Positions 3,545-32,000 are shown, counted from the stretch's first letter. The stretch: 32,000 nucleotides of DNA from Edaphobacter aggregans (GCF_003945235.1 NZ_RSDW01000001.1:3690001-3722000), one strand, 5' to 3'. Numbers and translations: made by a program. Notes: generated by a model from the sequence alone, not told the origin.

Positions 3545-3556
3545 ATATCACCTGCA

Positions 3557-4004: not shown

Positions 4005-4706
4005 ATGAAGTGTTTTGATGTGGTCTTGATTGGAGTGCTGTCTGTGGGACCGGCGGTCGCTGGCATGGCCCAGGCGGCACAAACGAAGCCGGTACCACCC
4101 GTTACGCCTCCAGTGTCTACGGCTGCACCTGCGACTGGGACGGACGGAGTGGTTGCGACACCAGCTCCGGCCAACCCTGACGGAGCCCCTTCCCCATCGA
4201 AATCATCCGACGCGGGGGTAGCAAATACGCCACATTACATTATTGGACCTGAGGACAACCTGCAAATCTCGGTCTGGAAGGAGCCGTCGCTCTCGGGCAC
4301 GATTCCGGTACGACCTGACGGTATGATCTCGCTGGCCCTGGTGGGCGATTTGCCCGCGTCAGGACGGACGCCGATGCAACTGGCGAACGACATCACAGTG
4401 CGACTAAAGAAGTATGTCCAGGACCCCAACGTCTCTGTTGTCGTACTAGCAGTGAACAGCCAGAAGATCTATATGGTTGGCGAGGTAGGACATGTTGGAC
4501 CGATCCCCCTGGCAGCAGGGATGACGCCATTGCAGGCAATTGCTACTGCAGGTGGGCTGGGTCCGTTTGCGAACTCGAAGAAGATTTATATTATGCGGAC
4601 AGTGGCGGGTAAGGAACAGAAGATCCCATTCAATTACAAGGTGGCGCTGAAGGGAGGAGATCAGGGAGTCACGCTGCAGTCTGGAGATACGATCGTCGTC
4701 CCATGA
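4005..4706 (+). CDS. Polysaccharide export protein (Wza-like; Poly_export + SLBB), XrtA/PEP-CTERM-system type
   Basis: The track ORF starts at TTG 3975. I prefer ATG 4005 (MKCFDVVLIGVLSVGPAVAGMAQA signal peptide, AGGA upstream). Poly_export-like segment: YIIGPEDNLQISVWKEP...VRPDGMISLALVGDLPASGRTPMQLANDI. SLBB-like segment: KIYMVGEV...MTPLQAIATAGG...GDTIVVP. A roughly 50-aa Pro/Ala/Thr-rich linker follows the signal peptide. Confidence 0.85.
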   Translation: MKCFDVVLIGVLSVGPAVAGMAQAAQTKPVPPVTPPVSTAAPATGTDGVVATPAPANPDGAPSPSKSSDAGVANTPHYIIGPEDNLQISVWKEPSLSGTIPVRPDGMISLALVGDLPASGRTPMQLANDITVRLKKYVQDPNVSVVVLAVNSQKIYMVGEVGHVGPIPLAAGMTPLQAIATAGGLGPFANSKKIYIMRTVAGKEQKIPFNYKVALKGGDQGVTLQSGDTIVVP

Positions 4707-6055: not shown

Positions 6056-6064
6056 GGAGTCATC

Positions 6065-7597: not shown

Positions 7598-7599
7598 CG

Positions 7600-9500: not shown

Positions 9501-9518
9501 CAGGGAGCAATTGACGCG

Positions 9519-12130: not shown

Positions 12131-12460
12131 AGTGCACGTGAGTCGCCAATCATTTGAATGTCGCTGTGATTTAAAGACTCAAACATCATGAAAAAGACAT
12201 GGTGGTTTTGATCTCCGACATCAGATCGGATCGTAAGCAGCTATCTATCGGTAGAAAACGAGGTCATAGCAAGAAAGCTTACTAAAGTAACCCTAGCCAA
12301 AAATAACCTTTTTTTTGACTCTTTTGAAGCGGTTAACATGTAATCTAAGCCTACTTGGAGAGAAATAAGGGAAAACCTTTATCTCTTTTGTCAGCAAAAT
12401 TATTAACATTTTTCTGTCGCAGGTTTCTCAAACGGTCTAAAATTCGCTCAGCAAAACGCC

Positions 12461-12477
12461 GTGGGGAGTCTCCCCAC
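12461..12477. promoter_or_regulatory. Perfect 17-bp palindrome GTGGGGAG-T-CTCCCCAC in the divergent EBP-EBP intergenic region
   Basis: Read directly: 8-bp arms are exact reverse complements around a central T. It lies about 120 bp upstream of the 12596 start codon. Confidence 0.3.
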
Positions 12478-12595
12478 CTCTGCGGCCGGGAAAGAATCAA
12501 TAAGGTAGTGCGGATCCAGTAAAAAGAGAGACATGGGTCCAAGAGTCTTGCAAGGTTTGGACGTTAGATTCCAAACCGGCCTATAGGGGTGTTGT

Positions 12596-14023
12596 ATGTC
12601 CGCTTCGTTGTCGTATCCGATCTCTGCTTTTAAGTCCAGTTCTAAGGCCCGCGCCCAGATACTAATTCTGGAGCCAGACATTGCAGTTCTCGACTATCTT
12701 CGGTTGACCCTTGGTGACCAGTATGCGCTTAGCCTCTTCTCGGAAGAGCAATCGCTGCTGGACCGCCTTGATCAAAAGGAGGCCGACTTGCTGTTACTGG
12801 CATTGCACGCGAACCGGGATCCGATTCCGCTACTGACGCATATCCGATGCACGAAGCCGAATCTGCCGGTAATTGTGCTGTCATGCTCGGCGGAACTGCG
12901 GGATCTGGAGATGGTGATCCGGCTCGGCGTGCGGGCGATCGTGATGAAGCCGTTTACCGGCAGCGACGTGGAACAGGCGATCGAAGAGCATTTGGCAACG
13001 GCGGAGAAGAAGATTTCGCCGGCCGACTCCCCGCGGGAGATTCCTCTGAATGAGACGCATTCGTTCGTGCGGTCAAGCAAGCGGATGCGGGATCTTGAAG
13101 CGCAGGCTGCTCTGGTTGCCCGGGCGGATATTCCGCTTCTGATCCTAGGAGAGAGCGGGACGGGCAAGGAGATTCTTGCGCTATATACACACATGATGTC
13201 TGCGCGGAGCCAGCGCATCTTCCTTAAGGTGAATTGCGCAGCAGTGCCGGCAGATCTGCTGGAAAGCGAACTGTTCGGCTATGAACAGGGCGCGTTCACC
13301 GGTGCGGTGAAGACGAAGCCGGGTAAGTTCGAAATATGCTCGGGTGGAACGATCTTCCTGGACGAGATTGGCGAAATGCCTGCGATTTTGCAGGCAAAGC
13401 TGCTGCAAGTGCTGCAGGACGGGACTTTTTCGCGGCTGGGCAGCCGATCGCCGATGAAGGTGGATGTGCGGGTGATCGCAGCGACGAACATCAATATGAA
13501 AGAAGCAATGGCGAACAAGACGTTCCGCGAGGATCTGTACTACCGGCTAAACGGATTCACGTTGAGCATTCCGCCGTTGCGGGAGAGACGTGAGGAGATT
13601 CCGGTGTTCGCTGAGTATTTTATGCGGAAGAGCGCCAAGAAATACGGTCGCGAGCCGTTGCACTTCTCGCAGACTTTGGTGAATACGCTGACGGAACACT
13701 CGTGGCCAGGAAACTTGCGTGAGTTGGAGAATGTGGTGAATCGCTATCTTGTGCTGGGCGATGAGAAGGCGATCGTTGACGAGCTTTCTCCGTCGAACGC
13801 TTATCAGGGCGCTTCGGCTGCGGCGGCAGAGGCGCCGACCGGTGCTGGCCTGAAGGCTATGGTGAAGAGTCTAAAGGGTGGTGCTGAGGCCAGCGCGATC
13901 GCTCAGGTGCTGGAAGGTGTTGGTTGGAACAGGAAGGCAGCGGCAAATGATCTTCAGATCAGTTACAAGGCGCTGCTGTACAAGATCAAGCAATATGACC
14001 TTTCTCCGCAGGATCGCGCATAA
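12596..14023 (+). CDS. NtrC-family sigma54-dependent regulator with a degenerate (Asp-less) receiver domain; PrsR-like by position
   Basis: Receiver-like N-terminus (ILILEPD...ADLLLLALHAN...VIVLSCS...MKPF), AAA+ core (GESGTGKE, EQGAFTGAV, TIFLDEI), and Fis HTH (NRKAAANDLQISYKALLYKI). The residue aligned to the phospho-acceptor Asp is Ala. Confidence 0.85.
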   Translation: MSASLSYPISAFKSSSKARAQILILEPDIAVLDYLRLTLGDQYALSLFSEEQSLLDRLDQKEADLLLLALHANRDPIPLLTHIRCTKPNLPVIVLSCSAELRDLEMVIRLGVRAIVMKPFTGSDVEQAIEEHLATAEKKISPADSPREIPLNETHSFVRSSKRMRDLEAQAALVARADIPLLILGESGTGKEILALYTHMMSARSQRIFLKVNCAAVPADLLESELFGYEQGAFTGAVKTKPGKFEICSGGTIFLDEIGEMPAILQAKLLQVLQDGTFSRLGSRSPMKVDVRVIAATNINMKEAMANKTFREDLYYRLNGFTLSIPPLRERREEIPVFAEYFMRKSAKKYGREPLHFSQTLVNTLTEHSWPGNLRELENVVNRYLVLGDEKAIVDELSPSNAYQGASAAAAEAPTGAGLKAMVKSLKGGAEASAIAQVLEGVGWNRKAAANDLQISYKALLYKIKQYDLSPQDRA

Positions 14024-14518
14024 GTGAAAAAGATGGCCGAGACAGAGACCACGGGAACGTACCGGGTTGTCGTACGCTATGAAGACCGTGCGGTTCGTGG
14101 GTTCGTGGAGGAGAGCGAACTGGGGTCGATCGAGCAGCTTTTGCGGAACGATCCGCAGTATCCTCTTGATTCCATTCGTTTAAGGCTCCTCGATTCTGAA
14201 GAGGTCGAAGAGGTTCCTACTAAGGACGCTAAGGCAGTTTTTTTTGTTAAGACGTTCGATGGTGATTTGCGGCATCGGGCGCTGCATTTCCATGAAAATG
14301 CGCCAATTGTGCCGGGACTCTGGGTGCGGGTGTATTTTTACGATGGCGAGATGATCGAGGGGATCATCAGCAATACGCGGGACTTTGTGTTGGAGGATGG
14401 GTTTTTTATGAGGCCCACGGATCCTAATGGAAACAATAGACTTGTCTATATTTTGAAAGGCGGGTTGAAGGATTTTCACGTGCTGGGGATGAGGAATCCT
14501 TCGAAGAATCCGGCTTAG
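14024..14518 (+). CDS. Hypothetical 164-aa soluble protein, co-transcribed with the pseudo-receiver EBP
   Basis: The GTG start is immediately adjacent to the upstream TAA (14021-14023). It is followed by a clear rho-independent terminator. Two similar beta-rich halves are visible (YRVVVRYEDRAVRGFVEE...AVFFVKTFDGD and LWVRVYFYDGEMIEGIISN...LVYILKGGLKDF). I do not recognise a family with confidence. Confidence 0.6.
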   Translation: MKKMAETETTGTYRVVVRYEDRAVRGFVEESELGSIEQLLRNDPQYPLDSIRLRLLDSEEVEEVPTKDAKAVFFVKTFDGDLRHRALHFHENAPIVPGLWVRVYFYDGEMIEGIISNTRDFVLEDGFFMRPTDPNGNNRLVYILKGGLKDFHVLGMRNPSKNPA

Positions 14519-14850: not shown

Positions 14851-16056
14851 TCAGACAGCCATCTTCAGCCTCTCTCGAACGGCCCAATCCTGGAGAAGCT
14901 TAAGCGATTTTCCGGAAGCTGTACGATTCGCTCGGCCACGAGCCTGAACGACAGTACGTCTCTTCGGATCAACCTCGACGGTCAAAACGTGCTGAACCCT
15001 CTCACCCTGCCACACGCGCAGTGACCAAATGCTGGAAACGCCACGGTAGCAGCGATCAGCATAGCTTGCGACACAATGATGCAGTGCGGCACCCTCGCTC
15101 CGGAGCTGTGCACTATTGGTAAGCTCCAACATTAGCCACCGTCTCGGCATCTCTGGATGATCCCGGCTGGGCTCTGCTACCTGAAACGGTTCAAACGGCG
15201 ACCGTGTCCACGAGTAAGCAGCACCGCCCGCACCGAGACTTCGGTGCCAGGTGTGCACCAACCGTAGCATCGACTGTACCGTTCGACCTTTCATAGAGAA
15301 CGCTGGTTGTGGGGGATCAAGTCTGACTGTTCCGTCCGGCGTGTCTATCGTGATTCGCTCGTGTCGAACTGCCTGAATGTAGTCGATCATGGGCCCGACG
15401 TGCACGGGATCTACATCACCCGCATTGTCGATCAAAAACATCCAAACAGTACGCCAGAACTTCCCATGACGTAAGTCTGTGGTCAATCGAGTAGATAGAA
15501 TCGCCCTCATCAACTCGGAAGGTGCTCCCAGAGCGAGCAGCTCCGCTCTACGAATGGCGTGCTCGATGGGTAGGTGATCCTGCGATGCGAGGAAGATATG
15601 TTCCATCTTCCGGGTCATCACAACCGGTAGGTCGAGAGATCGAAAGCTGACCCCGTTGGAGTGTGCGATAAACCACTCACGTTTCCTGTCTGCAGCCGAG
15701 TCAGTCGCATACCAGCAGGACGCGAGAAACACCGGAACTCTGTATTCGCAGATGAGGTGGCGTGCCAACGACGATACTGCGGGCCGCCAAGATGATGATG
15801 AGCCAGCCCAGTCACTCGCTGGCCGGATATGGGCGCCTCGGAAACGAGACAGGTTGACGAGCGTGTCTACACCAGAGTGACGCCCATTGACGATGGGTGC
15901 CTCGAACAAGCGCGCTGCTCGCTTCCGAGCACAATGCAACAGTTCACAGAATTTCTCTAAGACGGATGTATCGAAGGACAGTTCGGCGTATGCATGGTGG
16001 ATAGCGCAGTCCGTTCGCCGCCTGTGATCCCGAACGAAACGTTCAGACCAAGACAT
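14851..16056 (-). CDS. PcfJ-like domain protein (function unknown)
   Basis: 401-aa ORF. The C-terminal block LRSEGAALHHCVASYADRCYRGVSSIWSLRV...LTVEVDPKRRTVVQARGRANR matches my recollection of the PcfJ-like signature (HCV..Y...C..G...I.SLR...T.E....I.Q.RG..N). The gene is monocistronic, with large non-coding flanks (332 and about 400 bp). Confidence 0.55.
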   Translation of the reverse strand: MSWSERFVRDHRRRTDCAIHHAYAELSFDTSVLEKFCELLHCARKRAARLFEAPIVNGRHSGVDTLVNLSRFRGAHIRPASDWAGSSSSWRPAVSSLARHLICEYRVPVFLASCWYATDSAADRKREWFIAHSNGVSFRSLDLPVVMTRKMEHIFLASQDHLPIEHAIRRAELLALGAPSELMRAILSTRLTTDLRHGKFWRTVWMFLIDNAGDVDPVHVGPMIDYIQAVRHERITIDTPDGTVRLDPPQPAFSMKGRTVQSMLRLVHTWHRSLGAGGAAYSWTRSPFEPFQVAEPSRDHPEMPRRWLMLELTNSAQLRSEGAALHHCVASYADRCYRGVSSIWSLRVWQGERVQHVLTVEVDPKRRTVVQARGRANRTASGKSLKLLQDWAVRERLKMAV

Positions 16057-16457
16057 AACTTCTCCTATTTTCTAAACCGTTGAGCGAGTGGCGCGAATGT
16101 GCGCCCCCGACGTCACATACAAAAACAACGCGGCTTCAGACTGCCGGTGCGTGGCACGCCTGTGTTTTTGTCGGGTTTAGATAACAGAGAAGAACATCAC
16201 GAATTGATGATAGATCATTCGATAATGCATTCGTCAATCACCATCACGACCTACCCCTTCAATCTGAGATGATCGAGGTTCCTCCGTTTGCAATATCTCT
16301 TGGGAGAGATGGCCAAGAAGACCCGCGTTGGGTTGGTACTTAGAAACGCGCTTATCTTTACTAAGCGGCTTCTTCCAACTATCTAGTGTTGCCGGGGTGA
16401 GAAGCTTCTTGTCAGCCTCCCGTTGGTATCATTTTCGTGACTTTCTTTCGAGGCGAG

Positions 16458-17708
16458 ATGAGGTCCTTTCCAGACCGGGTGGTCTATCGTTCGTTCCTGC
16501 GCGCCGGCGGGTTCTTTCTCGCAGCCGTATTCTGGGTTCTTCCGGCGCAGGCGCTTCCTGCGAAAGGCACGCCGGCTCCCTCCCTCACGACGATTCAGTT
16601 ACTGCAAGCTCCAACAAGCGGGCGAAGAGATTGGGATAGTCTGCGAGGAAAAGTGGTGGTGCTGGAGTTTTGGGCTACGTGGTGCGCGCCGTGCATCGCC
16701 AGCCTGCCTCACCTGAACCAACTCGTGGAGGCGCTCGATCCAGCTCGATTTCAATTCATCTCCATCGATGACGAAGACCCGAAGGTGGTGCAAGCATTTC
16801 TCGCGAAGAAGAAGATTGGGGGTTGGGTGGGTGTGGATCGCTCAGGCAGCGTCTTTGCGCGGTATGGCGTGAAGTCGAGGCCGACCACCATTGTTGTGGA
16901 CACGCGGGGAAAGATTGTGGCGGCAACGGAGATGGACAATCTGAATGCTGCTGACCTGGAGGCAGTGGCCGAAGGGAAGAGCGTCGCTTTCAAACCAGCA
17001 ATGGAGATCGTTACGCAGAGTGCTGCCGTTTTGCCGGCAGCCGCGGCTCATCCTTTGTTTTCTGTTTCGTTCAGCAAGGCCGCTCCGGGTTCGAAATTTT
17101 CCATGGTGAAGCATCCGCCGAGCGGAACGGACTTTCTTGGAGTCGACGCAGGAACTCTTTTGACCTACATCTACGATCCGATCGGCGAGCGGACAGTCGT
17201 CGGGAGCCCGTTGCCAGAAGGACTTTACAACTTGCGGGTGGAGTTGGCCGGGGTGCCGGATGCCGAGGCGTCGTCCATTGTCCGAACAGCGGTTTTCTGC
17301 GGATTGCATTTGCAGGTGCAGCCGAAGACGATCACCAAGCGCGAATACATTCTCAGAGCCACGGATGCGAGCCAGCAGCTCTTAAGCCCATCCGCTTCGA
17401 ACGGAAAGGCGATGCGAGGCTACTGGAATGGGAGGCTCGTGATCTCGAAGGGAACGATGGACGATCTCGCCTTTGCGTTGGAAACGGGACTCCAGAATCC
17501 GGTGGTGAACCAAACCGGTATCGAAGGCAAGTTCGATGCGCGCTTCAATTTCAAACCAGAAGATATTGACAGTGCGAATGCCGTGATCAAAAAGACTCTT
17601 GGTCTTGAACTGGTGCCAGGTACTGAGGAGCGGACGGTAACGCTGCTCGAGCTGGTCAAACAGGACGAGGGCCAATTGTGTGCAGCAGAGCCGAAGCAAG
17701 ACAAGTAG
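16458..17708 (+). CDS. Secreted thioredoxin-fold (TlpA/redoxin-like, CxxC) protein fused to a TIGR03435-type (DUF3738) C-terminal domain
   Basis: The track start is GTG 16437. ATG 16458 gives MRSFPDRVVYRSFLRAGGFFLAAVFWVLPAQA (signal peptide). Thioredoxin motif: VVLEFWATWCAPC. The C-terminal half aligns by eye to the TIGR03435 pattern (..GTMDDLAFALETGLQNPVVNQTGIEGKFDARFNF..., ...KKTLGLELVPGTEERTVTLLELV). Confidence 0.75.
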   Translation: MRSFPDRVVYRSFLRAGGFFLAAVFWVLPAQALPAKGTPAPSLTTIQLLQAPTSGRRDWDSLRGKVVVLEFWATWCAPCIASLPHLNQLVEALDPARFQFISIDDEDPKVVQAFLAKKKIGGWVGVDRSGSVFARYGVKSRPTTIVVDTRGKIVAATEMDNLNAADLEAVAEGKSVAFKPAMEIVTQSAAVLPAAAAHPLFSVSFSKAAPGSKFSMVKHPPSGTDFLGVDAGTLLTYIYDPIGERTVVGSPLPEGLYNLRVELAGVPDAEASSIVRTAVFCGLHLQVQPKTITKREYILRATDASQQLLSPSASNGKAMRGYWNGRLVISKGTMDDLAFALETGLQNPVVNQTGIEGKFDARFNFKPEDIDSANAVIKKTLGLELVPGTEERTVTLLELVKQDEGQLCAAEPKQDK

Positions 17709-18084: not shown

Positions 18085-21000
18085 ATGCCACACCTTGAGG
18101 AACTTATGACAATTACGTCTCCCCGTTCCCTGCAGTCCCTTGTTCCTTCGCTTCTACGGAACCGCAGATCGAAGTTTTTCTTAGTGCTGTTGATGACACT
18201 TGTCACCAGCGTGGCTTACGCGACTCAGGCGCCAACGACGACGGCATTGGCCATCTCGGGAAATACGATTGTCTATCAGCGGCCAGTGATTCTGGCAGCG
18301 ACTGTCACTTCCGGCGGATCGCCTGTCAGCGCTGGGTTGGTGATGTTCTGCGATGCGAGTGCGAAGTATTGCGAGAGCAACACTGCGCTTGCGATGGTTC
18401 AGCTGAATGCGTCCAACGGAGTCGCTATTGTGAAGCTGGGCAGCGGTCCGCTGGGATCGCACAGCTACAAGGCGGTGTATCGCGCGAATAATTCCTATGC
18501 CTCGAGCACGTCGAACACACAGACGTATACGGTCGTGGGAACGTATGGCTCCACGATGGGCCTCACTTCCACGGGTACGGTCGGCGCCTATACGCTCAAG
18601 GGCTCCGTAACAGGAATCGGATCGCTTGTTGCCGGACCGACCGGCACCGTCTCATTTCTGGATACGAGCGTCGGCAATAATTCGCTGGGAACCGAGCCTC
18701 TGGGGACGGCTACGCTCACGAGCGCCTTTGCTCAAGCACCAAACTCGCCGTTTCTGATCGGCAATGACCCTACGAACAAGAGAGATTCTGTCGCGGTCGC
18801 TTCTGCGTATCTCAACTATTTCGACAACAACCTGGATGTGGTGACGGGCGATTCGAACAATGTCATCTCAGTCCTGCTTGGCAATGGCGATGGGTCGTTT
18901 CAGCCGAAGGTGAACTATCCGGGGTGCCCGACTGCGTCGCCGGTTGCGATCAAGATCCTTTTGGCAGATTTCAATCGGGACGGGCTGACGGACATCGCGC
19001 TGGGCTGCTCCGACGGGAGCACGGTGGGCGGACTATCGATCCTTCTCGGCAACAGCGATGGGAGTTTTCAGCCTCCAGTTTCGTACTCCACCGGCGATGC
19101 CGCCGGGCTCGCTTTGGGCGATTTCAATAACGATGGAATATTAGACATTATCCTGACGAATCGCGCGCAGCAGAACGTGACAGTCTTTATCGGAAACGGC
19201 GACGGGACCTTCCAGGCGGCAAATATCGTTCTTGCGACTCCGCAGAAGGTCCATGACATTGTGGTTGCGGACTTCAATGGAGACGGTAACGACGATATTG
19301 CTTACGCGGTGAGCACAACGGGGCTGTCGACTGTATATTTTGCAGCCGGTAACGGTGATGGCACGTTTCAAACGCCGGTGGTCGCTGCAACGAATGTTGG
19401 CGAATTTTTGACCATGGGCGATTTGAACGCCGACAACAAACAGGACATTGTGTCCGCCACGATTACCCAGCCGAGTGGACACTATGTTGGCTACAGCATG
19501 TATGTCCTGATGGGTAATGGCGATGGAACCTTTAAGCCGGCGGTGTCTTATCTTGCCGACTATCCTTCTGATCCGCATATTGCGGACGTAAACGGGGACG
19601 GGAAGCCGGACGTGATAGCAGGAGGAAGCTTCGGCGCGCTGGTGTTTCTAGGCAACGGCGACGGAACATTCCAGAACTATACAGAGCCAGTCATCGGCGG
19701 CTTTGGGCTGACCTATGCCGTGAATGCTGGAGACTTCAACAACGACGGCAATGCAGATTTGATTGGAACGGATGCGCAATCACCTCATGCCGCAGTGGCT
19801 CTTAGCCAGGTGCAGCAGGGAGCGAGCGCCGCCGCACTTGCAGGCGTTGCCGTTTTCCCGCTGGGCAGCGGTACTCACAACGTTGATGCGAGTTACTCGG
19901 GCGACGGGATCTATAGCCCCAATGTCTCATCAACGATTCCGCTTCTGGCTGCACCGACGCCAACGACACTGACGCTCGCTGTGCAGCCGGCCTCGGCAAC
20001 GGTGCCCGGACAGTCGGTGACTCTGACGGCTACGTTGAGCCCCTATACGGTTGGGCCTCCGACGACGACGACGGATGGCGAGACGGTGAAGTTCTATAAC
20101 GGCAATGCGCTGCTGGGATCGGGCACGCTGAGCGGCGGTGTCGCTACGTATACGACAACAGCATTGCCGGCCGGTACCGATACGCTGAAGGCTATCTATC
20201 CTGCGACCGGGGATAAGAATTATCTGTCCAGCACATCGAACACGGTGAACATGACGGTGACGGGAATAGTTGTGTCGTCTTCCGTGAATCCGTCCACGTA
20301 TTTGCAGAACGTGACGTTTACGGCGACGGTGGCGACAGGCGACACGGGCAACGTGATGTTCATGGATGGCACGACGTCGCTTGGTACGCAGGCAATCTCG
20401 GGGACGACGGCGACTTTGAGTTTGAGTACGCTTTCGGTTAATTCGCACAATATTACCGGTGTTTACAACGGGGATGGCAGTCATAGTCCTGCGACTTCGC
20501 CGGTGCTTGTGCAGGTGGTGAATAAGGCGACGCCGACGGTGACGGTCTCGACCAGCGGGGCGAGCTCTTATGGCGACTCGGTGACGATCACTGCGACGAT
20601 TGTGGCAGGAGCCACGGGTACGGTGACGTTCACGAGCGGCGGGGTAACGCTGGGTTCCGCGTCGCTGAATGGATCGGGTGTGGCTTCGATCACGACGAGT
20701 GTGTTGCCGGTCGGGAGCGATTCGATTACGGCGAGCTATCCGGGTGATGGCAATTACACCCAGGCTAATGGCTCGGTGACGCAGACGGTTGGGCAGAAGG
20801 CTGTGAGTCCAACGCTGACGTCGTCCGCGAATCCGTCGAAACAGGGAAGCTCTGTCACGTTTACGGATACGCTGCCGACAGGGGCGACGGGTACGGTTGC
20901 GTTTTCGAGCAATGGAACGTCGCTGGGCACGATTGCTGTGAACAATGGCGTGGCGACGGTATCGACGTCGACGCTTCCGGTCGGTAGTGACGCTATTGTC

Positions 21001-24000
21001 GCGGTCTATAGCGGTGATACGAACTACAGCACGGCTACTTCGAATCTGCCCCAGACGGTTAACAAGGCGACGCCTTCGATGACGGCAACGACCTCGGGAG
21101 CGAGTACGTATGGAGCGTCGGTTACGCTGACCGCGACTCTGACGGGTGGTGCGGGCGCCGGTGTTACGGGTTCGGTGGCTTTCACGGATGGCGCATTGGC
21201 GCTGGGCACGGGAACTGTGAGTGCTGCGGGTATTGCGACGATCTCAACTACGGCGTTGCCGACGGGAAGCTCTACGATCACCGCGACGTACAGCGGTGAT
21301 GCGAATAATGCCGGAACGACAGCCACTGTAGCCCAGGTGGTGTCGACGGCGACGACGACGGTGAATGTTGCGGCGACCGGTGCGGGTGCTTACGGCGCTA
21401 CGGTCACCATTACAGCGACCCTGCCGACGGGGCCGACTGGGAATGTGACGTTTACTAGCGGCGGAGTGACTCTGGGCACTGCGGCTGTTGGGTCAACTGG
21501 TACGGCAACGATAACGACGACTGTGCTGCCCGTGGGTACCGATACGATTACGGCGAACTACGGCGGCGATACGAACTACGGCTCGGCGAGTGGGACGACG
21601 TCGGTGACGATGACGAAGATTTCGCCGACGATGACGCTTGGGTCTTCGCTGAATCCGAGTATCTATGGCCAGTCTGTGACCTTCACTGCAACACTGCCAA
21701 CGAGTACGACTGGCACGGTTACATTTGCGAGCGGCGGCACGACGTTCGGCACGGGGACAGTGGTGAATGGTGTTGCGACGGCGTCAACGACGAGCTTGAC
21801 GGTTCCGAGCGACGTGATTAACGCGACCTACAACGGAGATGGGAACAATAGCACGGCTACGGCGACGCTGACGCAGACGGTGAACAAAGCTACGCCTGCG
21901 GTGACTGTGTCGACTCCGGGGCCAACCACGTATGGCAGTTCGGTAACGATTACGGCCTCCGTACCGGCGGGTGTGACGGGAACGATCACGATCACTAGCG
22001 GTGGTGCAAACCTGGGCACGGGAACTGTGAGCGCCGCGGGGGCGGTGACGGTGACGACTACGGCGCTGCCTGTTGGAAGCGATACGATCACGGCCGACTA
22101 TAGCGGAGACGCGAACAACAATTCGAATTCGGGATCGACGACGCAGGTGGTGTCGGCGGCGACAGCTACGGTGAATGTGTCGACCTCGGGGCCGAGCAAC
22201 TATGGCGATCCGGTGACGATTACGGCCACCGTTCCCACTGGGGAGACGGGCACCATAACGATCACGAGTAATGGCGTGACACTCGGAATGGGCACTGCAA
22301 CCGCAACCGCGGGGACGGTGACGGTGACGACGTCGACGCTTCCTGTAGGCAGCGATCCGATTACTGCGACCTATGGCGGAGATAGCAACCATAGTTCGGC
22401 TACGGCAACAACGACTCAGGTTGTGTCGAAGAAGGCGCCGACGGTGGGGATTGCGTCATCGCTGAATCCGTCTACGGTGAATCAGTCTGTGACGTTTACA
22501 GCGACTGTGTCGAACAACGCGACAGGGACGGTTACATTTTTGGATGGTGCTACTTCTTTGGGCACCGGGACGCTGGCTGGGGGCACTGCGACGTTTGCTA
22601 CATCAACGTTGTCAGCGGGTTCGCACACGATCACGGCGTCTTATGGCGGGGATACGAATAATGGCTCCGCTACTTCGGCGGCTCTGACGCAGACGGTGAA
22701 CAAGCAGGATCCAACGCTGCCGGCTCCGACTGTGTCGTCGACTACCATTACGCTGGGTGGGTCGGAGACTATCACTGAGACGGTGCCGACTGGGGTGTCC
22801 GGGCCGGTTACATTCTCTGAGGGTGGGACCGTTATCGGTACGGCGCCGGTTGTGGGTGGAGTCGCGAGTATTACGGTGACGACGCTGCCGGTTGGTTCTG
22901 ATCCGATTACGGCGAGCACGCCTGGCGATGCGAACAACAATCCGGCTACTTCGCCTGCAACGATTGTTACGGTCAACAAAGGGACGCCGACTATCGGGCT
23001 TAGCTCTTCGCTGAATCCCTCGGCGTCCAATCAGCCGGTGACGTTCACCGCGACCGCGCCAACGGGAGCGACGGGGACGATCAACTTCCTGGATGGCTCG
23101 ACTCCTCTCGGGACGGGGACGTTGGCGAATGGTCAGGCGAGCGTCACTGTCCCAACGATGACGGCTGGGACGCACACTATCACGGCGAGCTATGCAGGTG
23201 ATTCGTCGTACACCGCTGCGACGTCTGCGCCTCTGATACAGACGGTCAACAAAGGAACGCCCGTGTTGACGGGGCCGGTTGTCTCGTCGCCGACGATACC
23301 CTACGGTGGCACGGAGACGATCACGGAGACAGTGCCTCCGGGAGTGTCTGGACCGGTTACGTTCACTGATGGCGGGACGGTGATCGGAACGGCGCCAATC
23401 GTAGGTGGGGTCGCGACGATTACTGTGACGACGCTGCCGATTGGAAGCGATCCGATTACGGCGAGCACGCCTGGCGACGCGAACAATAATCCGGCGACTT
23501 CGCCAGCGACGACGGTGACGGTGACGAAGCTGACGCCGGTGCTGCCGCCGCCGACGGTGTCGTCGACCACGCCTCCGCCGAATACTCCGGTGACGATTAC
23601 GGAGACAGTGCCGACGGGAGTGACCGGGACGGTTACATTCTCTAACGGTGGGACGGTACTTGGCACGGCTCCGATTGTAAGTGGAGTTGCGACGATCACG
23701 GTGCCTTCGCTGCCGCTGGGTGCGAACCCAATCACGGCAAGCACGCCGGGCGATGCGACCACCAATCCTGCTACTTCACCTGCGACGACGGTGACCGTAG
23801 GGAAGACAACTCCCACGGTGACGTTGACTTCGTCGTCGAGTTCGTCGAACGTCAACCAGTCGGTTACGTTTACGGCGACGCTTCCTGCTGGTGCTAGTGG
23901 CACGGTGACCTTCCTTGATGGGACGACGGTTCTTGGAACGGGTACTGTGAGCGCTGCCGGTGTCGCGACGTTCAGCACCGCTAACCTGACGACCGGAACG

Positions 24001-24912
24001 CACACGATCACTGCTTCCTATGGGGGGAATGACAGCTATACGGCGGCGACGTCCGCTCCGTTGACTCTGGTCGTGGGCAAGGCGGTGACGACAATTACGC
24101 TGACGCAGAGCCAGCCTACGGAGCTGCTAGGCACCTCGGTGACGTTCACGGCCACGGTGGCTGCGGGAACGCCTACTCCTACGGGGACGGTCTCGTTCCT
24201 TGATGGGACGACGGTTCTCGGGACGGCTCCGCTGAGTACGAATGGCACTGTGGTCTCGTTCGTGCTGTCGGGTAATGCGAACTATGCGACGAGCACGCTG
24301 ACGACGGGAACGCACACGATCACGGCGACGTATTCGGGCGATACCGGCTTCGGGACCAGCACATCGGCACCTGTTACGAACATCGTGCAGGACTTCACGT
24401 ATACGGTGACCGGTACGAAGACGCAGAACATCTTCCCCGGTGATACGACGAGCTTTACGTTCAGCGTGACACCGGTGGGTTCGACGACCTTCATGAGCGA
24501 TTTGACGATGGATATCGATGGCCTGCCGAAGGGTACTACTTACACCTTCTCGCCGGCGAAGATTGCTGCCGGGAGCGGTACGACGACCGTTACGCTCAAC
24601 GTTACGACGAGCAGCACGCTGACTGCAGCGAACCGGGTCCCGGCGGGAACGCCAACGCCTCGACGGGGCGCTCCGATTGCTCTTGGAGTGCTTGGGCTGC
24701 TTGGTCTGGGTGCTGTCCGCAGGCATGGGCGCAAGATGCCACGCATGCTGATGGTGCTTCTGTTGTTCCTTGGCACGCTGCTGCCGGTTGCTGCGCTGAG
24801 TGGTTGCGCTGGCGGTTATTTCACGCTGACTCCGACGACCTATTCGGTTACTGCTACGGGTACCGAGGGGACGATTCAACATTCCGCAACCGCGACTCTG
24901 GTCGTGCAGTAG
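18085..24912 (+). CDS. Giant secreted surface protein: 2 Ig-like domains, FG-GAP/VCBS beta-propeller, about 17 tandem Ig-like (Big_3-type) domains, unusual double-helix C-terminal module
   Basis: Single 2275-aa ORF. The likely start is ATG 18106 (GAGGA 5 nt upstream). Signal peptide: RNRRSKFFLVLLMTLVTSVAYA. See the sub-features and findings. Confidence 0.9.
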   Translation: MPHLEELMTITSPRSLQSLVPSLLRNRRSKFFLVLLMTLVTSVAYATQAPTTTALAISGNTIVYQRPVILAATVTSGGSPVSAGLVMFCDASAKYCESNTALAMVQLNASNGVAIVKLGSGPLGSHSYKAVYRANNSYASSTSNTQTYTVVGTYGSTMGLTSTGTVGAYTLKGSVTGIGSLVAGPTGTVSFLDTSVGNNSLGTEPLGTATLTSAFAQAPNSPFLIGNDPTNKRDSVAVASAYLNYFDNNLDVVTGDSNNVISVLLGNGDGSFQPKVNYPGCPTASPVAIKILLADFNRDGLTDIALGCSDGSTVGGLSILLGNSDGSFQPPVSYSTGDAAGLALGDFNNDGILDIILTNRAQQNVTVFIGNGDGTFQAANIVLATPQKVHDIVVADFNGDGNDDIAYAVSTTGLSTVYFAAGNGDGTFQTPVVAATNVGEFLTMGDLNADNKQDIVSATITQPSGHYVGYSMYVLMGNGDGTFKPAVSYLADYPSDPHIADVNGDGKPDVIAGGSFGALVFLGNGDGTFQNYTEPVIGGFGLTYAVNAGDFNNDGNADLIGTDAQSPHAAVALSQVQQGASAAALAGVAVFPLGSGTHNVDASYSGDGIYSPNVSSTIPLLAAPTPTTLTLAVQPASATVPGQSVTLTATLSPYTVGPPTTTTDGETVKFYNGNALLGSGTLSGGVATYTTTALPAGTDTLKAIYPATGDKNYLSSTSNTVNMTVTGIVVSSSVNPSTYLQNVTFTATVATGDTGNVMFMDGTTSLGTQAISGTTATLSLSTLSVNSHNITGVYNGDGSHSPATSPVLVQVVNKATPTVTVSTSGASSYGDSVTITATIVAGATGTVTFTSGGVTLGSASLNGSGVASITTSVLPVGSDSITASYPGDGNYTQANGSVTQTVGQKAVSPTLTSSANPSKQGSSVTFTDTLPTGATGTVAFSSNGTSLGTIAVNNGVATVSTSTLPVGSDAIVAVYSGDTNYSTATSNLPQTVNKATPSMTATTSGASTYGASVTLTATLTGGAGAGVTGSVAFTDGALALGTGTVSAAGIATISTTALPTGSSTITATYSGDANNAGTTATVAQVVSTATTTVNVAATGAGAYGATVTITATLPTGPTGNVTFTSGGVTLGTAAVGSTGTATITTTVLPVGTDTITANYGGDTNYGSASGTTSVTMTKISPTMTLGSSLNPSIYGQSVTFTATLPTSTTGTVTFASGGTTFGTGTVVNGVATASTTSLTVPSDVINATYNGDGNNSTATATLTQTVNKATPAVTVSTPGPTTYGSSVTITASVPAGVTGTITITSGGANLGTGTVSAAGAVTVTTTALPVGSDTITADYSGDANNNSNSGSTTQVVSAATATVNVSTSGPSNYGDPVTITATVPTGETGTITITSNGVTLGMGTATATAGTVTVTTSTLPVGSDPITATYGGDSNHSSATATTTQVVSKKAPTVGIASSLNPSTVNQSVTFTATVSNNATGTVTFLDGATSLGTGTLAGGTATFATSTLSAGSHTITASYGGDTNNGSATSAALTQTVNKQDPTLPAPTVSSTTITLGGSETITETVPTGVSGPVTFSEGGTVIGTAPVVGGVASITVTTLPVGSDPITASTPGDANNNPATSPATIVTVNKGTPTIGLSSSLNPSASNQPVTFTATAPTGATGTINFLDGSTPLGTGTLANGQASVTVPTMTAGTHTITASYAGDSSYTAATSAPLIQTVNKGTPVLTGPVVSSPTIPYGGTETITETVPPGVSGPVTFTDGGTVIGTAPIVGGVATITVTTLPIGSDPITASTPGDANNNPATSPATTVTVTKLTPVLPPPTVSSTTPPPNTPVTITETVPTGVTGTVTFSNGGTVLGTAPIVSGVATITVPSLPLGANPITASTPGDATTNPATSPATTVTVGKTTPTVTLTSSSSSSNVNQSVTFTATLPAGASGTVTFLDGTTVLGTGTVSAAGVATFSTANLTTGTHTITASYGGNDSYTAATSAPLTLVVGKAVTTITLTQSQPTELLGTSVTFTATVAAGTPTPTGTVSFLDGTTVLGTAPLSTNGTVVSFVLSGNANYATSTLTTGTHTITATYSGDTGFGTSTSAPVTNIVQDFTYTVTGTKTQNIFPGDTTSFTFSVTPVGSTTFMSDLTMDIDGLPKGTTYTFSPAKIAAGSGTTTVTLNVTTSSTLTAANRVPAGTPTPRRGAPIALGVLGLLGLGAVRRHGRKMPRMLMVLLLFLGTLLPVAALSGCAGGYFTLTPTTYSVTATGTEGTIQHSATATLVVQ
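18790..19800 (+). other. FG-GAP/VCBS repeat region (integrin-alpha-like beta-propeller) of the giant protein
   Basis: Six GN(G/S)DG(S/T)F motifs alternate with DxNxDGxxD-type motifs (ADFNRDGLTD, GDFNNDGILD, ADFNGDGNDD, GDLNADNKQD, ADVNGDGKPD, GDFNNDGNAD), plus one degenerate first blade. Confidence 0.8.
19945..24390 (+). repeat. Tandem array of about 17 Ig-like domain repeats (about 90 aa each) inside the giant gene
   Basis: The recurrent pattern is ..V(T/S)(F/L)TAT(L/V)P.G.TGTVTF..G...LGT..L..GVA...T..LP.G.D.ITA.Y.GD.N......T.TV.K. I counted 17 units by the Y/T-x-GD motif. Confidence 0.8.
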
Positions 24913-24923
24913 GAGAGATACCG

Positions 24924-25505
24924 ATGCATCTTGCAAGAATTGCGCTACTCGTCTTTTTGCTCGCTTCACCCTGGGCGCTCCATGCTCAGGGTGGGATGTT
25001 GAGCGGGACAGAAGATATTTCCAGGCTGGAGGCCGGAGGGAACTATAACTATTTTCATGCGAACGCACCTCCGGGACAGTGTGGGTGTTTCGGGATGAAT
25101 GGCGGCAGTGGGACGTTTCTGATGAACGTCACACCAAAGTGGAGCGCGGTTGCCGATATCGCTTACGCGCACGCGAGCAATGTGAATGGTACGGCCCAGA
25201 ACATCACGATCATCAACTACCTGTTTGGGCCTCGCTATACGCGACGCATGAGGAGCCGCTATGTTCCTTATGGACAGGTTCTCTTCGGCGGTGCGAAGGA
25301 GGATGTTAATTTTCAATTCACCATCAATCGGCAATCGTTCGGGCTGCTGGGTGGCGGTGGGGTGACGACCCGGTTGAAGCGGAAGTTCGGATTGACTCTT
25401 ATCGAGGTCGACTACGTTTACACGAGGATTCCGAATGCGACGAACAATACGCAGAACAATCTGCGGATCGTGACCGGTGTGACGTATCACTTCGGTGCGC
25501 GCTAG
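24924..25505 (+). CDS. Small outer-membrane beta-barrel protein (OmpW/OMP_b-brl-like), 12 nt downstream of the giant gene
   Basis: The track ORF starts at 24804, inside the giant gene. I prefer ATG 24924 (GGAGAG SD), giving the signal peptide MHLARIALLVFLLASPWALHAQ. It has alternating beta-strand pattern and a C-terminal ..VTGVTYHFGAR. Its TAG overlaps the stop of convergent hemY (CTAG at 25502-25505). Confidence 0.7.
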   Translation: MHLARIALLVFLLASPWALHAQGGMLSGTEDISRLEAGGNYNYFHANAPPGQCGCFGMNGGSGTFLMNVTPKWSAVADIAYAHASNVNGTAQNITIINYLFGPRYTRRMRSRYVPYGQVLFGGAKEDVNFQFTINRQSFGLLGGGGVTTRLKRKFGLTLIEVDYVYTRIPNATNNTQNNLRIVTGVTYHFGAR

Positions 25506-30784: not shown

Positions 30785-32000
30785 TTATTCGGTGCGGAGG
30801 ATGATGACTGGGTCGGTTTGTAGGGCGTGGATTACGGGTGGGAGTGCGGCTAATACGGCGGCGGCGAGGATTGTCAGCGATGGGAGTATGAGCATTGCTG
30901 GGTCGGTGGCTTTGACTTGGTAGAAGAGGGTCTCGATGTATCGCACGGATGCCATGCCGAGGGTTAGGCCGGCGATGGCTCCGATGAGCACCATGGAGAA
31001 GACGCGGGCGGTTACGAGTCGGGCTATGACGCTGCGCTGTGCGCCGATTGCCATGCGGATGCCGATCTCGCGTTGGCGTTGCAATACTGAGTAGTTGAGG
31101 ACGCCGTAGAGGCCGATGCCTGCGAGTAAGAGTGCGACGGCAGCGAAGAAGAGTCCCAGCATGGCCAGAAGGCGCTCGCGGACGGTTTGGGCGCGGACCA
31201 GTTCGGCCTGGGTGCGGATGTTGCTGACGCGGAAGTCGGCGCGGGCCCGGGGGACTTCCTGACGGAGGACAGGCGCGAGTGCGAGGGGATTTGCGCTGGA
31301 GGTTCGGATGAGGAAGGTACCGCTGGTTGTGAGTATGGGTGCGCCTTTGGCGTCGACCTGGTGGAAGGGGACGTAGGCTGTGGGAAGGATCGGCTCGCGC
31401 AGGCTGCGGTAGGGGGCGTCGCGGACGAGGGCTACAACCTCGTAACGGTTGTTTCCTTTGCCGAAGAATTTTCCGACGGGATTTTCGCCGTTGAAGTAGG
31501 TCTTCGCGAAGGTATCGTTGACGATGGCGGCGCCGGGTGAGGTGTCGGTTATGCGGAGGTCGCGGCCGTCCAGAAAGGGAATCTTCATGGTGCTGGTCCA
31601 GCCGGGGGAGACGGGCAGGAAGTAGGCGAGATCAGGACTTGTGATGACGCCGTTGATTGCGATGAAGCCGTTCCATGAGTTACCTCCGAGCAGAGGCCAG
31701 CCTGAGAGGGCTACTGCTTCGACGCCGGGGACTGAGCGAAGATCGTCGGCTACCTGATCCCAGAAGACTGGTGGTTGTGCGTGGTGGGCCACGGTTTCGA
31801 GGAGGAGAAGGCGGTCGGTGGAGAAACCCATGGGACGGTTAGAAAGACGGTTGAAGGTTGCCACGAAGAGTCCCGCGACGAAGACGACGAGGAAGCAGAA
31901 GGCTACCTGGACGGCGATCATGCTGTGCATGAGACGGCGGCGTGAGTGTGGGTCGTCTCCGCCTTTGAGTGCGCTGACTGGTTTGACCGCTGAGGCTCGC
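30785..32000 (-). CDS. ADOP-family (MacB/FtsX-like) ABC transporter permease, C-terminal half; N-terminus beyond the window
   Basis: C-terminal FtsX domain (..RERLLAMLGLFFAAVALLLAGIGLYGVLNYSVLQRQREIGIRMAIGAQRSVIARLV...). The frame stays open upstream of the track's Met (31930) to base 32000 (RASAVKPVSALKGGDDPHSRRRL-MHSM...), so the gene is truncated by the window edge. Confidence 0.85.
   Translation of the reverse strand, partial: RASAVKPVSALKGGDDPHSRRRLMHSMIAVQVAFCFLVVFVAGLFVATFNRLSNRPMGFSTDRLLLLETVAHHAQPPVFWDQVADDLRSVPGVEAVALSGWPLLGGNSWNGFIAINGVITSPDLAYFLPVSPGWTSTMKIPFLDGRDLRITDTSPGAAIVNDTFAKTYFNGENPVGKFFGKGNNRYEVVALVRDAPYRSLREPILPTAYVPFHQVDAKGAPILTTSGTFLIRTSSANPLALAPVLRQEVPRARADFRVSNIRTQAELVRAQTVRERLLAMLGLFFAAVALLLAGIGLYGVLNYSVLQRQREIGIRMAIGAQRSVIARLVTARVFSMVLIGAIAGLTLGMASVRYIETLFYQVKATDPAMLILPSLTILAAAVLAALPPVIHALQTDPVIILRTE

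Follow-up and report, generated by a model that had tools for sequence, protein, structure and literature searches.

The window (the whole stretch of DNA that was analysed, 32,000 nucleotides of Edaphobacter aggregans, NZ_RSDW01000001.1:3690001-3722000) contains a gene for a giant surface protein and, directly downstream, a small gene for a predicted outer-membrane beta-barrel. The giant protein (2275 aa) is named only "Ig-like domain repeat protein" in RefSeq, and from Met8 onward matches GenBank RSL17574.1 exactly ("VCBS repeat protein [Edaphobacter aggregans]"). It is composed of an N-terminal signal peptide, an FG-GAP/VCBS region (FG-GAP_3, E 1e-45), approximately 18 Big_3_5 Ig-like repeats (E 1.4e-269, 18 stretches), and a terminal anchor module. 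As read from the translation, the N-terminal signal peptide lacks a Cys and hence is not itself a predicted lipoprotein signal. The last 83 residues (residues 2193-2275, 24661-24909) agreed to the base with their description in an earlier note on this DNA. The features of the locus are as follows.

2594-3544, minus strand: exosortase gene, XrtA-type
18085-24912, plus strand: giant surface protein gene, 2275 aa (stop codon 24910-24912)
18085-18222, plus strand: putative Sec (type I) signal peptide, MPHLEELMTITSPRSLQSLVPSLLRNRRSKFFLVLLMTLVTSVAYA with TQ following the predicted cut, read from the translation
24391-24606, plus strand: first part of the terminal beta-sandwich (DFTYTV...TVTLNVTT), six predicted strands, equal to columns 1-73 of uninterrupted DUF5980-type domains (AF2, hhalign)
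24583-24909, plus strand: profile HMM match to NF058595 "invert_tail", profile positions 1-113 of 113
24607-24669, plus strand: linker joining the last strand before the hairpin to helix 1 (SSTLTAANRVPAGTPTPRRG), falling in the hhalign gap between template columns 73 and 74 (AF2 pLDDT 54-79)
24670-24717, plus strand: helix 1 (APIALGVLGLLGLGAV), AF2 helix at model residues 94-111, predicted to run from outside to inside
24718-24744, plus strand: basic loop RRHGRKMPR, predicted cytoplasmic, read from the translation
24745-24804, plus strand: helix 2 (MLMVLLLFLGTLLPVAALSG), a lipoprotein-type h-region, AF2 helix at model residues 118-138
24805-24807, plus strand: lipobox Cys, conserved in the family, the predicted site of diacylglycerol attachment with predicted cleavage on its N-terminal side
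24808-24909, plus strand: whole 34-aa tail after the Cys, read from the translation
24808-24834, plus strand: linker AGGYFTLTP after the Cys (family motif G-G-[YF]-F...P)
24835-24909, plus strand: tail strands TTYSVTATGTEGTIQHSATATLVVQ, supplying the final two beta-strands of the terminal sandwich (hhalign template columns 74-99, AF2 strands)
24911-24917, plus strand: Shine-Dalgarno-like AGGAGAG, overlapping the stop codon of the giant gene (TAGGAGAG) and lying 6 nt before the partner ATG
24924-25505, plus strand: partner gene, 193 aa, with a signal peptide and a predicted outer-membrane beta-barrel of about 8 strands (synteny, PF13505 in orthologs, motifs)

Substitutions at codon positions 1/2/3 of the module frame were counted in orthologs (3/1/15, 3/1/11, and 15/9/51), and the third-position excess indicates that the module is one plus-strand ORF under selection. 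Two antisense ORFs (24127-25068 and 24540-24776, minus strand) were considered as coding and rejected, given that substitutions follow the plus-strand codon phase.

Anatomy of the terminal module

The hairpin-deleted family profile was aligned using hhalign to uninterrupted DUF5980-type domains, taken from proteins of which several were flagged as PF19410, and covered 99 of 99 template columns (Prob 99.7%, E 1.4e-26). Relative to these domains, approximately 76 residues are inserted in the loop before the last two strands of a DUF5980-like beta-sandwich. The insertion starts with the linker at 24607-24669 and continues with helix 1, the 9-aa Arg/Lys loop, helix 2 with its lipobox L-S-G-C, and a short Gly/aromatic linker; it is a membrane helical hairpin inside the last Ig-like domain. 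The basic loop serves also as the n-region of the signal peptide after it, and helix 2 ends in lipobox positions -3 to -1 (L-S-G).

An AF2 model of the module plus the terminal domain was built from 49 sequences (mean pLDDT 83.8). Core strands (model residues 2-7, 11-14, 19-28, 38-43, 50-54, and 65-72) had a pLDDT of 94-98, tail strands (149-159 and 162-172) 90-97, and the helices 63-81, with Cys139 placed directly after helix 2. Foldseek alignments of this model to Ig/Fn3/CARDB-like domains spanned 165-172 of 173 columns. Together with homology, the pLDDT values and the Foldseek span suggest that the tail packs into the sandwich. The suggestion in the earlier note that the tail completes the preceding partial domain was thus borne out (hhalign 99.7%, tail pLDDT 90-97), as was the anatomy of a helical hairpin with a basic loop, which agrees with the sequence, the AF2 helices, and the family statistics.

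The Pfam DUF5980 model (PF19410) scored 14.9 bits (E 0.038) on the spliced window domain, under its gathering score of 27.1 bits, and reached a best E of 0.0021 on spliced relatives. A PDB sequence search with the hairpin-deleted domain returned only chance-level matches, and an hmmsearch of 150 family proteins detected no uninterrupted copy of the terminal domain at an internal position. Pfam, run on the tail and on the whole giant protein, gave no match for the terminal module.

Helix 2 had been said to resemble a lipoprotein signal peptide, and this holds: the basic n-region (RRHGRKMPR), the h-region (MLMVLLLFLGTLLPVAA), and a lipobox (LSGC) of the form [LVI][ASTVI][GAS]C are all present. 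The exception is position, in that the element starts at residue 2212 of 2275 rather than at the N-terminus. The h-region of approximately 20 residues is long for a lipoprotein signal peptide.

Family membership and conservation

The earlier note had regarded the module as possibly undescribed. It is instead already curated, in NCBIfam release 20.0 (June 2026), as NF058595 ("invert_tail", lipo-invert putative C-terminal anchoring domain). The last 173 aa matched the full profile at 49.5 bits (E 4.5e-13; curated cutoff 37 bits) and the last 399 aa scored 46.8 bits. All nine of nine diverse relatives scored above the cutoff (54-72 bits, against 47-50 bits for the window protein), and the family recovered by profile search in this analysis corresponds to NF058595. 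When the whole 2275-aa protein was scanned, NF058595 was not reported and only XAC2610_fam was listed at E ≤ 0.01, probably owing to filtering or bias in so long and repetitive a sequence. The module is an ordinary member of NF058595, a known but uncharacterised family. Literature searches found no published paper on this module, and a 2023 preprint by Haft on Cys-bearing C-terminal signals does not mention lipo-invert.

A profile search with the module family, as the earlier note had proposed, gave 1778 clusters at 50% identity with the same C-terminal architecture; with the NF058595 match, this places the module far beyond chance. Family proteins range from 71 to 5101 aa, and among the matches listed the module ends at the protein end or a few residues away. 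The heads of module-bearing proteins vary (FG-GAP, NHL, sedolisin-type peptidase), and minimal family members of 224 aa were observed.

Residue statistics were calculated from 150 listed representatives of the 1778 clusters. The Cys is kept in 150/150, 33-40 aa before the C-terminus, and the tail after it measures 34-37 aa in 135/150. Lipobox position -3 is L, V, I, or M in 144/150 (L113/V12/I11/M8), position -2 is S or T in 128/150 (S87/T41), and position -1 is almost always Gly (G147/A3). Asn occupies position -2 in 10/150, which is atypical for a lipobox. The residue after the Cys is G, A, S, or N and never Asp in these representatives. Helix 1 has a median length of 16 and typically opens with xAP, has a Pro inside, and ends in Gly; helix 2 has a median length of 20 aa; and the basic loop has a median of 10 aa with a mean of 5.6 Arg/Lys and 0.03 Asp/Glu. 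Within the family, the window protein falls in a somewhat divergent subgroup from Acidobacteriaceae (CAGGYF..TGTEG..IQH).

Pairing with a barrel gene

The conserved pairing of the invert tail with a barrel gene was evident at several distances. The barrel gene lies directly 3' of the tail in 51/51 orthologous loci. A scan of 80 distant loci, 75 of them informative, placed it after the tail in 63/75, where it was the sole recurrent downstream family. Reciprocal look-ups from divergent barrel homologs likewise recovered an upstream invert-tail gene (3/3). It was absent from the other 12/75 informative distant loci and from two further loci (L052 and L054), so that a partner in cis is not a requirement. 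The 80-locus scan also overturned the idea, based on two distant members without a barrel gene, that the barrel is restricted to the ortholog group.

Since the Shine-Dalgarno sequence of the partner overlaps the stop codon of the giant gene, the sequence implies that the two genes are co-transcribed. The same layout, with GGAGA 5-8 nt before the partner ATG, was found in three other loci (L135, L141, and L145). Members of the barrel family are approximately 195-210 aa (193 aa in the window) and share an invariant CGCF motif (25080-25091 in the window), with further motifs GPRYT and a C-terminal YHFG. The window barrel protein had no match to PF13505 (OMP_b-brl) at E ≤ 10; four of six orthologs scored 30-32 bits (cutoff 28.7), and most database homologs carry a precomputed PF13505 assignment. 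A curated model for the CGCF-motif barrel family was not found.

Proposed anchoring mechanism and known systems

The reading that we favor, at a probability of roughly 60%, is that the NF058595 module is a lipoprotein-signal C-terminal anchor, comprising the split domain, the predicted topology and processing, and the barrel partner. Once Sec has exported the 2200-aa body, helix 1 would act as a stop-transfer segment and the basic loop would be kept in the cytoplasm. Helix 2 could then re-cross the membrane in the orientation of an N-terminal lipoprotein signal, bringing the Cys to the periplasmic face. There, the Cys would receive diacylglycerol through Lgt, after which LspA would cleave the Gly-Cys bond and Lnt would acylate the N-terminus thus exposed. 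The 34-residue lipopeptide so formed would not be free but would supply the last two strands of the terminal domain. Because it would be part of the fold, the giant protein would be tethered by what amounts to a C-terminal lipid anchor. Such an arrangement would solve the topology problem that bars a normal lipoprotein signal at a C-terminus. The partner barrel most likely would receive or hold the anchor at the outer membrane. Against this reading, a cut of the LspA type would leave the body attached to a remnant of two helices, in which case the lipid alone would not relocate the protein, and no conserved protease gene was found near the module loci.

A bolder version of this reading is possible but doubtful. 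It holds that Acidobacteriota have a two-gene system for surface anchoring, not documented before, made up of the invert tail and the CGCF barrel gene after it. In this version an internal lipoprotein signal peptide would split the last beta-sandwich domain, the lipidated two-strand peptide would be held in the fold by strand complementation, and the barrel would dock or expose it at the outer membrane once some protease had removed the helix-1/helix-2 remnant.

The strongest competing explanation, which we consider unlikely, is that the hairpin is a plain two-helix inner-membrane anchor, never lipidated or cut, with its Cys kept for example for a disulfide with the CGC of the barrel. Both partners do carry invariant cysteines, literature searches found no precedent for LspA acting on an internal signal peptide such as this one, and cleavage alone would leave the body unfreed. 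However, conservation extends beyond the Cys to the whole lipobox (Gly at -1 in 147/150, L/V/I/M at -3 in 144/150, S/T at -2 in 128/150), and this lipobox is correctly spaced behind a basic n-region and hydrophobic h-region. Additionally, an OmpA-like reading of the barrel would place the CGC outside the cell, in the first loop (following strand 1), a long way from the inner-membrane face.

A good deal less probable is the exosortase link drawn in the earlier note, under which helix 1 would be a degenerate internal PEP-CTERM-type signal cut by the XrtA exosortase of the window, by analogy with "midcut-by-XrtH" proteins. Helix 1 shows the general motif/helix/Arg-cluster layout of C-terminal sorting domains, family members usually open it with xAP (sometimes LEP) and carry a helix-breaking Pro and a Gly, and the body needs some release from helix 1. 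The window does contain an XrtA-type exosortase with a polysaccharide cluster, and NF033207 (midcut_by_XrtH) gave weak sub-threshold matches in two relatives (14-15 bits, cutoff 45), although none in the window protein. Against this, the generic PEP-CTERM model (TIGR02595) had no match at E ≤ 10 to ten helix-1 segments cut as if C-terminal (the window and nine relatives), and two relatives gave only E 0.9-4 matches (7-9 bits) to PEP-CTERM protein-family models. The PEP motif itself is absent, the family consensus being xAP with LEP in few members. As the earlier note had observed, the window has GAP in its place (RRGAP), and the element is not C-terminal, with 55 further residues after the basic cluster. 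Its observation that no canonical PEP-CTERM substrate is visible in the window also stood in a regular-expression scan of all ORFs of at least 50 aa.

Genomic context argues in the same direction. The exosortase, placed 8 kb away in the earlier note, lies 14.5 kb from the start of the giant gene and 21 kb away from the module. The XrtA-linked polysaccharide cluster comes closer, as its last gene ends at 10895, approximately 7 kb from the giant gene; the genes between this cluster and the giant gene are conserved in the two closest relatives only. No xrtA homolog was found in the retrieved flanks (8-10 kb requested) of 131 related loci. The earlier proposal of a processing site therefore divides: the lipobox makes the module a candidate substrate of the lipoprotein machinery, whereas the exosortase part lacks a model match and a conserved linkage. 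The MYXO-CTERM models TIGR03901 and TIGR03382 scored 12.6 bits (cutoff 20) and 14.1 bits (cutoff 15.85) on the window segment, covering the helix and RRR part only, and the Cys before helix 1 that marks the MYXO-CTERM signature is absent from the window protein.

An artefact in which two genes were run together, the giant ending after helix 1 and its Arg cluster and a separate 58-aa lipoprotein starting at the MPRML ATG (24736), is effectively refuted: an in-frame ATG does precede helix 2 in the window and one MAG (L001/L045) has the tail called as a separate 96-aa gene, but L001 is a nanopore MAG whose split comes from one frameshift ahead of helix 1, no Shine-Dalgarno sequence precedes ATG 24736, the Met codon of MPR is ATG in 24/47 orthologous loci and Ile/Leu/Val in 23/47 (and in 9/27 close relatives), the module reads through as a single ORF in 150/150 listed representatives and most related loci, and the tail belongs to the fold of the preceding domain (hhalign). 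The frameshift or separate gene that the earlier note had named as a danger to its proposal was accordingly not borne out, with the MPR Met replaced in 23/47 loci and one ORF in nearly all relatives.

To our knowledge, few routes have been described by which a Gram-negative bacterium can secure a very large protein to its envelope through the C-terminus. Should the lipoprotein-signal anchor be correct, Acidobacteriota, which are abundant soil bacteria, would reuse the universal lipoprotein machinery for this task by placing a stop-transfer helix ahead of a lipoprotein signal peptide and hiding the lipopeptide in an Ig-like fold. The module itself was already curated; the near-constant partner barrel gene gives a concrete candidate for a second component.

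Several known systems resemble parts of this arrangement. The DUF5980-type (PF19410) Ig-like domains of Acidobacteriota surface proteins are alike over 99 columns once the hairpin is removed, but here a membrane hairpin of about 76 aa interrupts the domain before its last two strands, and the Pfam model is weakly matched. Type II lipoprotein signals (Lgt, LspA, Lnt) share the basic n-region, the h-region, and the lipobox L-[ST]-G-C, and their Nin-Cout orientation would be restored by helix 1. In contrast, the signal here is separated from the N-terminus by about 2200 residues and preceded by a stop-transfer helix, its h-region has about 20 aa, and the "mature" product of the predicted processing would be only 34 residues. 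PEP-CTERM/XrtA signals share the generic layout of helix 1 and Arg cluster, whereas the module has no PEP motif and no conserved exosortase linkage. Midcut-by-XrtH proteins (NF033207) illustrate that a sorting signal need not be C-terminal.

In the RcsF-OmpA/OmpC and LptE-LptD pairs, the function or surface exposure of a lipoprotein depends on a specific outer-membrane barrel. The likeness here is a lipid-anchor module genetically coupled to a small barrel; there is no sequence relationship to those pairs, the CGCF partner is a distinct family, and the pairing seen is one of neighbouring genes.

MYXO-CTERM and its myxosortase MrtX (Myxococcus) are alike in providing a C-terminal anchor signal with an invariant Cys on large Gram-negative surface proteins (PMC11980579). 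For MYXO-CTERM, lipidation of the C-terminal Cys followed by cleavage has been published as a model, in which a C-terminal lipid anchor is left that leads to surface display; Lgt is the leading candidate enzyme, and the authors point to the "inverted topology" as a difficulty for Lgt/LspA (PMC11980579). MYXO-CTERM lacks a lipobox, and its Cys precedes a single helix, whereas lipo-invert has a second helix with a genuine lipobox and its Cys after the helices. MYXO-CTERM also needs a dedicated CPBP protease and the T2SS, whereas the conserved partner of lipo-invert is a small barrel and not a protease. Unlike in MYXO-CTERM, the predicted anchor peptide of lipo-invert is part of a folded domain.

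The C-terminal module and its curated family

The 2275-aa giant protein is the product of an ORF at 18085-24912 on the forward strand, and from Met8 onward has the same sequence as GenBank RSL17574.1 ("VCBS repeat protein [Edaphobacter aggregans]"; RefSeq name "Ig-like domain repeat protein"). Pfam assigned 18 stretches to the Ig-like Big_3_5 family and detected an FG-GAP region, and the N-terminus, judged by eye, reads as a putative Sec signal peptide. The last 83 residues (24661-24909) in the translated ORF exactly matched those read in the earlier note, and comprise the following features (all from translation):

24670-24717, + strand, helix 1, APIALGVLGLLGLGAV
24718-24744, + strand, basic loop, RRHGRKMPR
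24745-24804, + strand, helix 2, MLMVLLLFLGTLLPVAALSG
24805-24807, + strand, lipobox Cys
24808-24909, + strand, tail of 34 aa

When the last 173 aa were compared to NCBIfam, they matched NF058595 "invert_tail" ([quoted passage not shown]) over profile positions 1-113 of 113, with a score of 49.5 bits against a cutoff of 37 and E 4.5e-13. The last 399 aa scored 46.8 bits on this model (cutoff 37), and nine diverse relatives scored 47-72 bits. The module, which the earlier note had suggested could be undescribed, is thus an instance of a curated family. Literature searches returned no paper on the NF058595 family and no experimental or published characterisation. NF058595 was absent from the match list when all 2275 aa, which are repetitive, were scanned against NCBIfam; this may be why the RefSeq name is uninformative, and long repetitive members may be systematically under-annotated.

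A profile built from 13 close tails was searched against 1.84 billion representative proteins. It matched 1778 clusters at E ≤ 1e-3, of which 277 reached E ≤ 1e-10. Among the matches listed, the match ended at the last residue of the protein or a few residues short of it, in proteins of 71-5101 aa. Named members belonged to Edaphobacter, Tunturiibacter, Granulicella, Terracidiphilus, Candidatus Acidoferrum, and unclassified Acidobacteriaceae; no member was seen outside Acidobacteriota among the named matches, most matches being without taxonomy.

A Cys lay 33-40 residues before the C-terminal end in all 150 family representatives, preceded by Gly at position -1 (147/150), Ser/Thr at -2 (128/150), and Leu/Val/Ile/Met at -3 (144/150). 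It was followed by Gly, Ala, Ser, or Asn and never by Asp, and the post-Cys tail was 34-37 aa long in 135 of the 150. Median helix lengths were 16 aa (helix 1) and 20 aa (helix 2), separated by a loop with a median of 10 aa, 5.6 Arg/Lys, and approximately no acidic residues. Helix 1 carried an internal Pro in 107/134 and Gly among its last four residues in 117/134. By its sequence pattern, the family is predicted to form a helical hairpin whose loop is cytoplasmic and whose second arm is a canonical lipoprotein signal peptide; the hairpin and the lipoprotein-signal reading of helix 2 proposed in the earlier note were both borne out.

Three minimal members (database proteins P0292, P0295, and P0301; 224-233 aa) had two parts only, the signal peptide at the N-terminus and the split domain described below. 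Their lipobox is a variant, LQGC, and they have a short additional C-terminal extension (TGSGLNT). These would be handy models for experiments.

A split terminal domain in a single reading frame

Two alignments of the terminal domain were compared, one of 22 family members from which the hairpin had been deleted (A3) and one of ten uninterrupted domains (A4). A database search with A3 recovered hairpin-bearing members as well as uninterrupted domains, several flagged as PF19410 (DUF5980). Profile-profile comparison of A3 to A4 gave a probability of 99.7% (E 1.4e-26) with all 99 template columns covered, columns 1-73 aligning to the pre-hairpin part and columns 74-99 to TTYSVTATGTEGTIQHSATATLVVQ. 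Between columns 73 and 74 lies a pure insertion, made up of the linker, the hairpin, and the second linker.

An AlphaFold2 model from a 49-sequence alignment had a mean pLDDT of 83.8, with values of 94-98 in the sandwich core, 90-97 in the tail strands (149-159 and 162-172), and 63-81 in the helices (94-111 and 118-138), Cys139 immediately following helix 2. Foldseek matched the model to Ig/Fn3/CARDB-like sandwiches, with alignments covering 165-172 of 173 residues. The tail is predicted to pack into the terminal sandwich on indirect measures (pLDDT and Foldseek span) and on homology. The split-domain reading is well supported, and the proposal that the tail completes the preceding domain was borne out by both the A3/A4 comparison and the confident tail strands. 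In family proteins the host domain was confined to the C-terminus.

The tail is not a separate gene, a possibility that the earlier note had tied to a sequencing frameshift. The module was in one ORF with upstream sequence in 150/150 listed family representatives, and of the 49 orthologous genome loci that were scanned, 36 had an ORF reaching 1500 codons or more upstream. Among the shorter ORFs were those of a frameshifted nanopore MAG (L001) and of short contigs. At the Met of MPR in the loop, the codon across 47 loci was ATG in 24, Ile in 17, Leu in five, and GTA in one, and no Shine-Dalgarno sequence was found before this Met. Differences between orthologs fell mainly at third codon positions (positions 1/2/3: 3/1/15 in locus L004, 3/1/11 in L007, and 15/9/51 in L051). 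Overlapping antisense ORFs were ruled out as coding because these differences concentrate at third positions of the plus-strand frame of the giant gene.

Single frameshifts break the giant gene in L001/L045 (about 9990-10015), and also in L015, L030, and L042, all nanopore-derived MAGs. In L001/L045 the frameshift occurs at SLSARN|SVPQ, just upstream of helix 1, such that the tail appears as a separate 96-aa gene. The most likely cause of these frameshifts is assembly error, not biology.

The exosortase locus and other genes of the window

The exosortase gene (2594-3544, - strand) scored 208.2 bits on TIGR03109 (XrtA; cutoff 208). It scored higher on XrtD, at 233.5 bits, yet below that model's cutoff of 400. 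It lies 14.5 kb from the start of the giant gene and 21 kb from the module, instead of the 8 kb stated earlier. The XrtA-linked polysaccharide cluster occupies 3975-10895 (+ strand), and only its last gene is approximately 7 kb from the giant gene. This XrtA/PEP-CTERM-associated cluster is full, with an export protein, chain-length determinant, ATPase, tyrosine kinase, and priming glycosyltransferase.

No PEP-CTERM-like C-terminus was identified in the window when every ORF ≥ 50 aa was scanned by regular expression, in agreement with the earlier note. Helix-1 segments of the window protein and nine relatives were trimmed at the end of the basic loop to mimic a C-terminus, and compared to sorting-signal models. 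None of the ten matched the generic PEP-CTERM model TIGR02595 at E ≤ 10. Segments from two relatives matched PEP-CTERM protein-family models only at E 0.9-4 (7-9 bits), and NF033207 (midcut_by_XrtH) reached 14-15 bits (cutoff 45) only in two relatives. On the helix and RRR part of two MYXO-CTERM models, the segment of the window protein reached 14.1 and 12.6 bits, under their cutoffs. The flanks fetched around 51 genome and 80 metagenome loci (8-10 kb requested) contained no xrtA homolog, and the genes between the XrtA cluster and the giant gene were present in the two closest relatives only. The proposed link to PEP-CTERM sorting and exosortase found no support in these profile searches and local gene contexts.

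Two divergent sigma-54 activators were located within 10979-14518, one at 10979-12130 (- strand) with no receiver domain and one at 12596-14023 with a receiver, the latter resembling PEP_resp_reg under its cutoff. A DUF6982 gene begins at 14024, the base right after the stop of the second activator. Between DUF6982 and the giant gene, 14851-17708 holds a PcfJ-like gene (- strand) and a thioredoxin/TIGR03435-like gene, both missing at this place in L004 and L007, the closest relatives. The region looks like an insertion specific to this lineage, PcfJ being a typical mobile-element gene. An ADOP-family permease ORF at 30785-31930 (- strand) matched the C-terminal half of its model only (418-803/803), and is either split or truncated close to the window end.

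A paired barrel gene and a proposed anchoring route

The next ORF after the giant gene is:

24924-25505, + strand, partner barrel gene, 193 aa with signal peptide

Its ATG is 11 nt past the giant-gene stop codon, which is overlapped by AGGAGAG. A homolog (59-94% identity) was directly downstream in 51/51 orthologous loci, across which the giant gene had no other conserved neighbours. Among 80 diverse metagenome loci fetched using tails of another subfamily, 63 had a homolog (26-39% identity) after the tail and on its strand, or 63 of 75 informative loci because five of the remaining 17 leave < 500 nt of contig. When all downstream ORFs were clustered, the partner was the sole recurrent family (median start 17 nt past the tail). 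Each of three divergent partner homologs, looked up independently, lay 12-15 nt downstream of a large NHL/SBBP/Big_3_5 gene ending in an invert tail.

PF13505 (OMP_b-brl) matched 4/6 partner orthologs at 30-32 bits (cutoff 28.7), NCBIfam gave sub-threshold generic barrel matches alone (15-26 bits; cutoff 60), and at least 1032 database proteins matched the partner at E ≤ 1e-5. Conserved features were an invariant C-G-C-F motif (25080-25091), GPRYT, and a C-terminal YHFG. The partner is a predicted small outer-membrane barrel, conserved beside invert-tail genes across the family, and a concrete second component that is apparently uncurated.

The partner was missing in cis from loci L052 and L054 and from 12 metagenome loci. 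In one locus a second, divergent invert-tail protein was encoded just after the barrel gene, which suggests several invert-tail substrates per genome. In L145, the gene at 2926-5787 (+ strand), 300 nt past the barrel gene, encodes a sedolisin-type peptidase of 953 aa that carries Big_3_5 repeats and has a divergent version of the invert-tail architecture at its end (...ARRSRKLRAVLALCLFGVLGLALSGCSDKG...TNFTLTID). This locus shows multiple invert-tail substrates with differing "heads" clustered within one genome.

The architecture is observed and conserved, the terminal domain is split, the reading frame is single, and the two genes are paired; beyond these observations, the following route is proposed. 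Helix 1 would act as a stop-transfer segment, leaving the basic loop cytoplasmic, and helix 2 would re-export the chain in the orientation required by Lgt and LspA. The Cys would be diacylglycerated, LspA would cleave before it, and Lnt would acylate it. The resulting 34-aa lipopeptide would be kept as two strands of the terminal sandwich, and the protein would therefore have an effective C-terminal lipid anchor. By the rule that applies in E. coli, the lack of Asp after the Cys would permit transport by Lol. For docking at the outer membrane, the obvious candidate partner is the co-encoded barrel.

The nearest published parallel to this proposed C-terminal Cys lipidation and cleavage is MYXO-CTERM, for which the proposal is that lipidation of a C-terminal Cys, most likely by Lgt, precedes cleavage (PMC11980579). 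Its authors noted that an "inverted topology" sets MYXO-CTERM apart from lipoprotein signal peptides (PMC11980579). In the invert tail, the second helix would do away with this difficulty, which fits the family name "lipo-invert".
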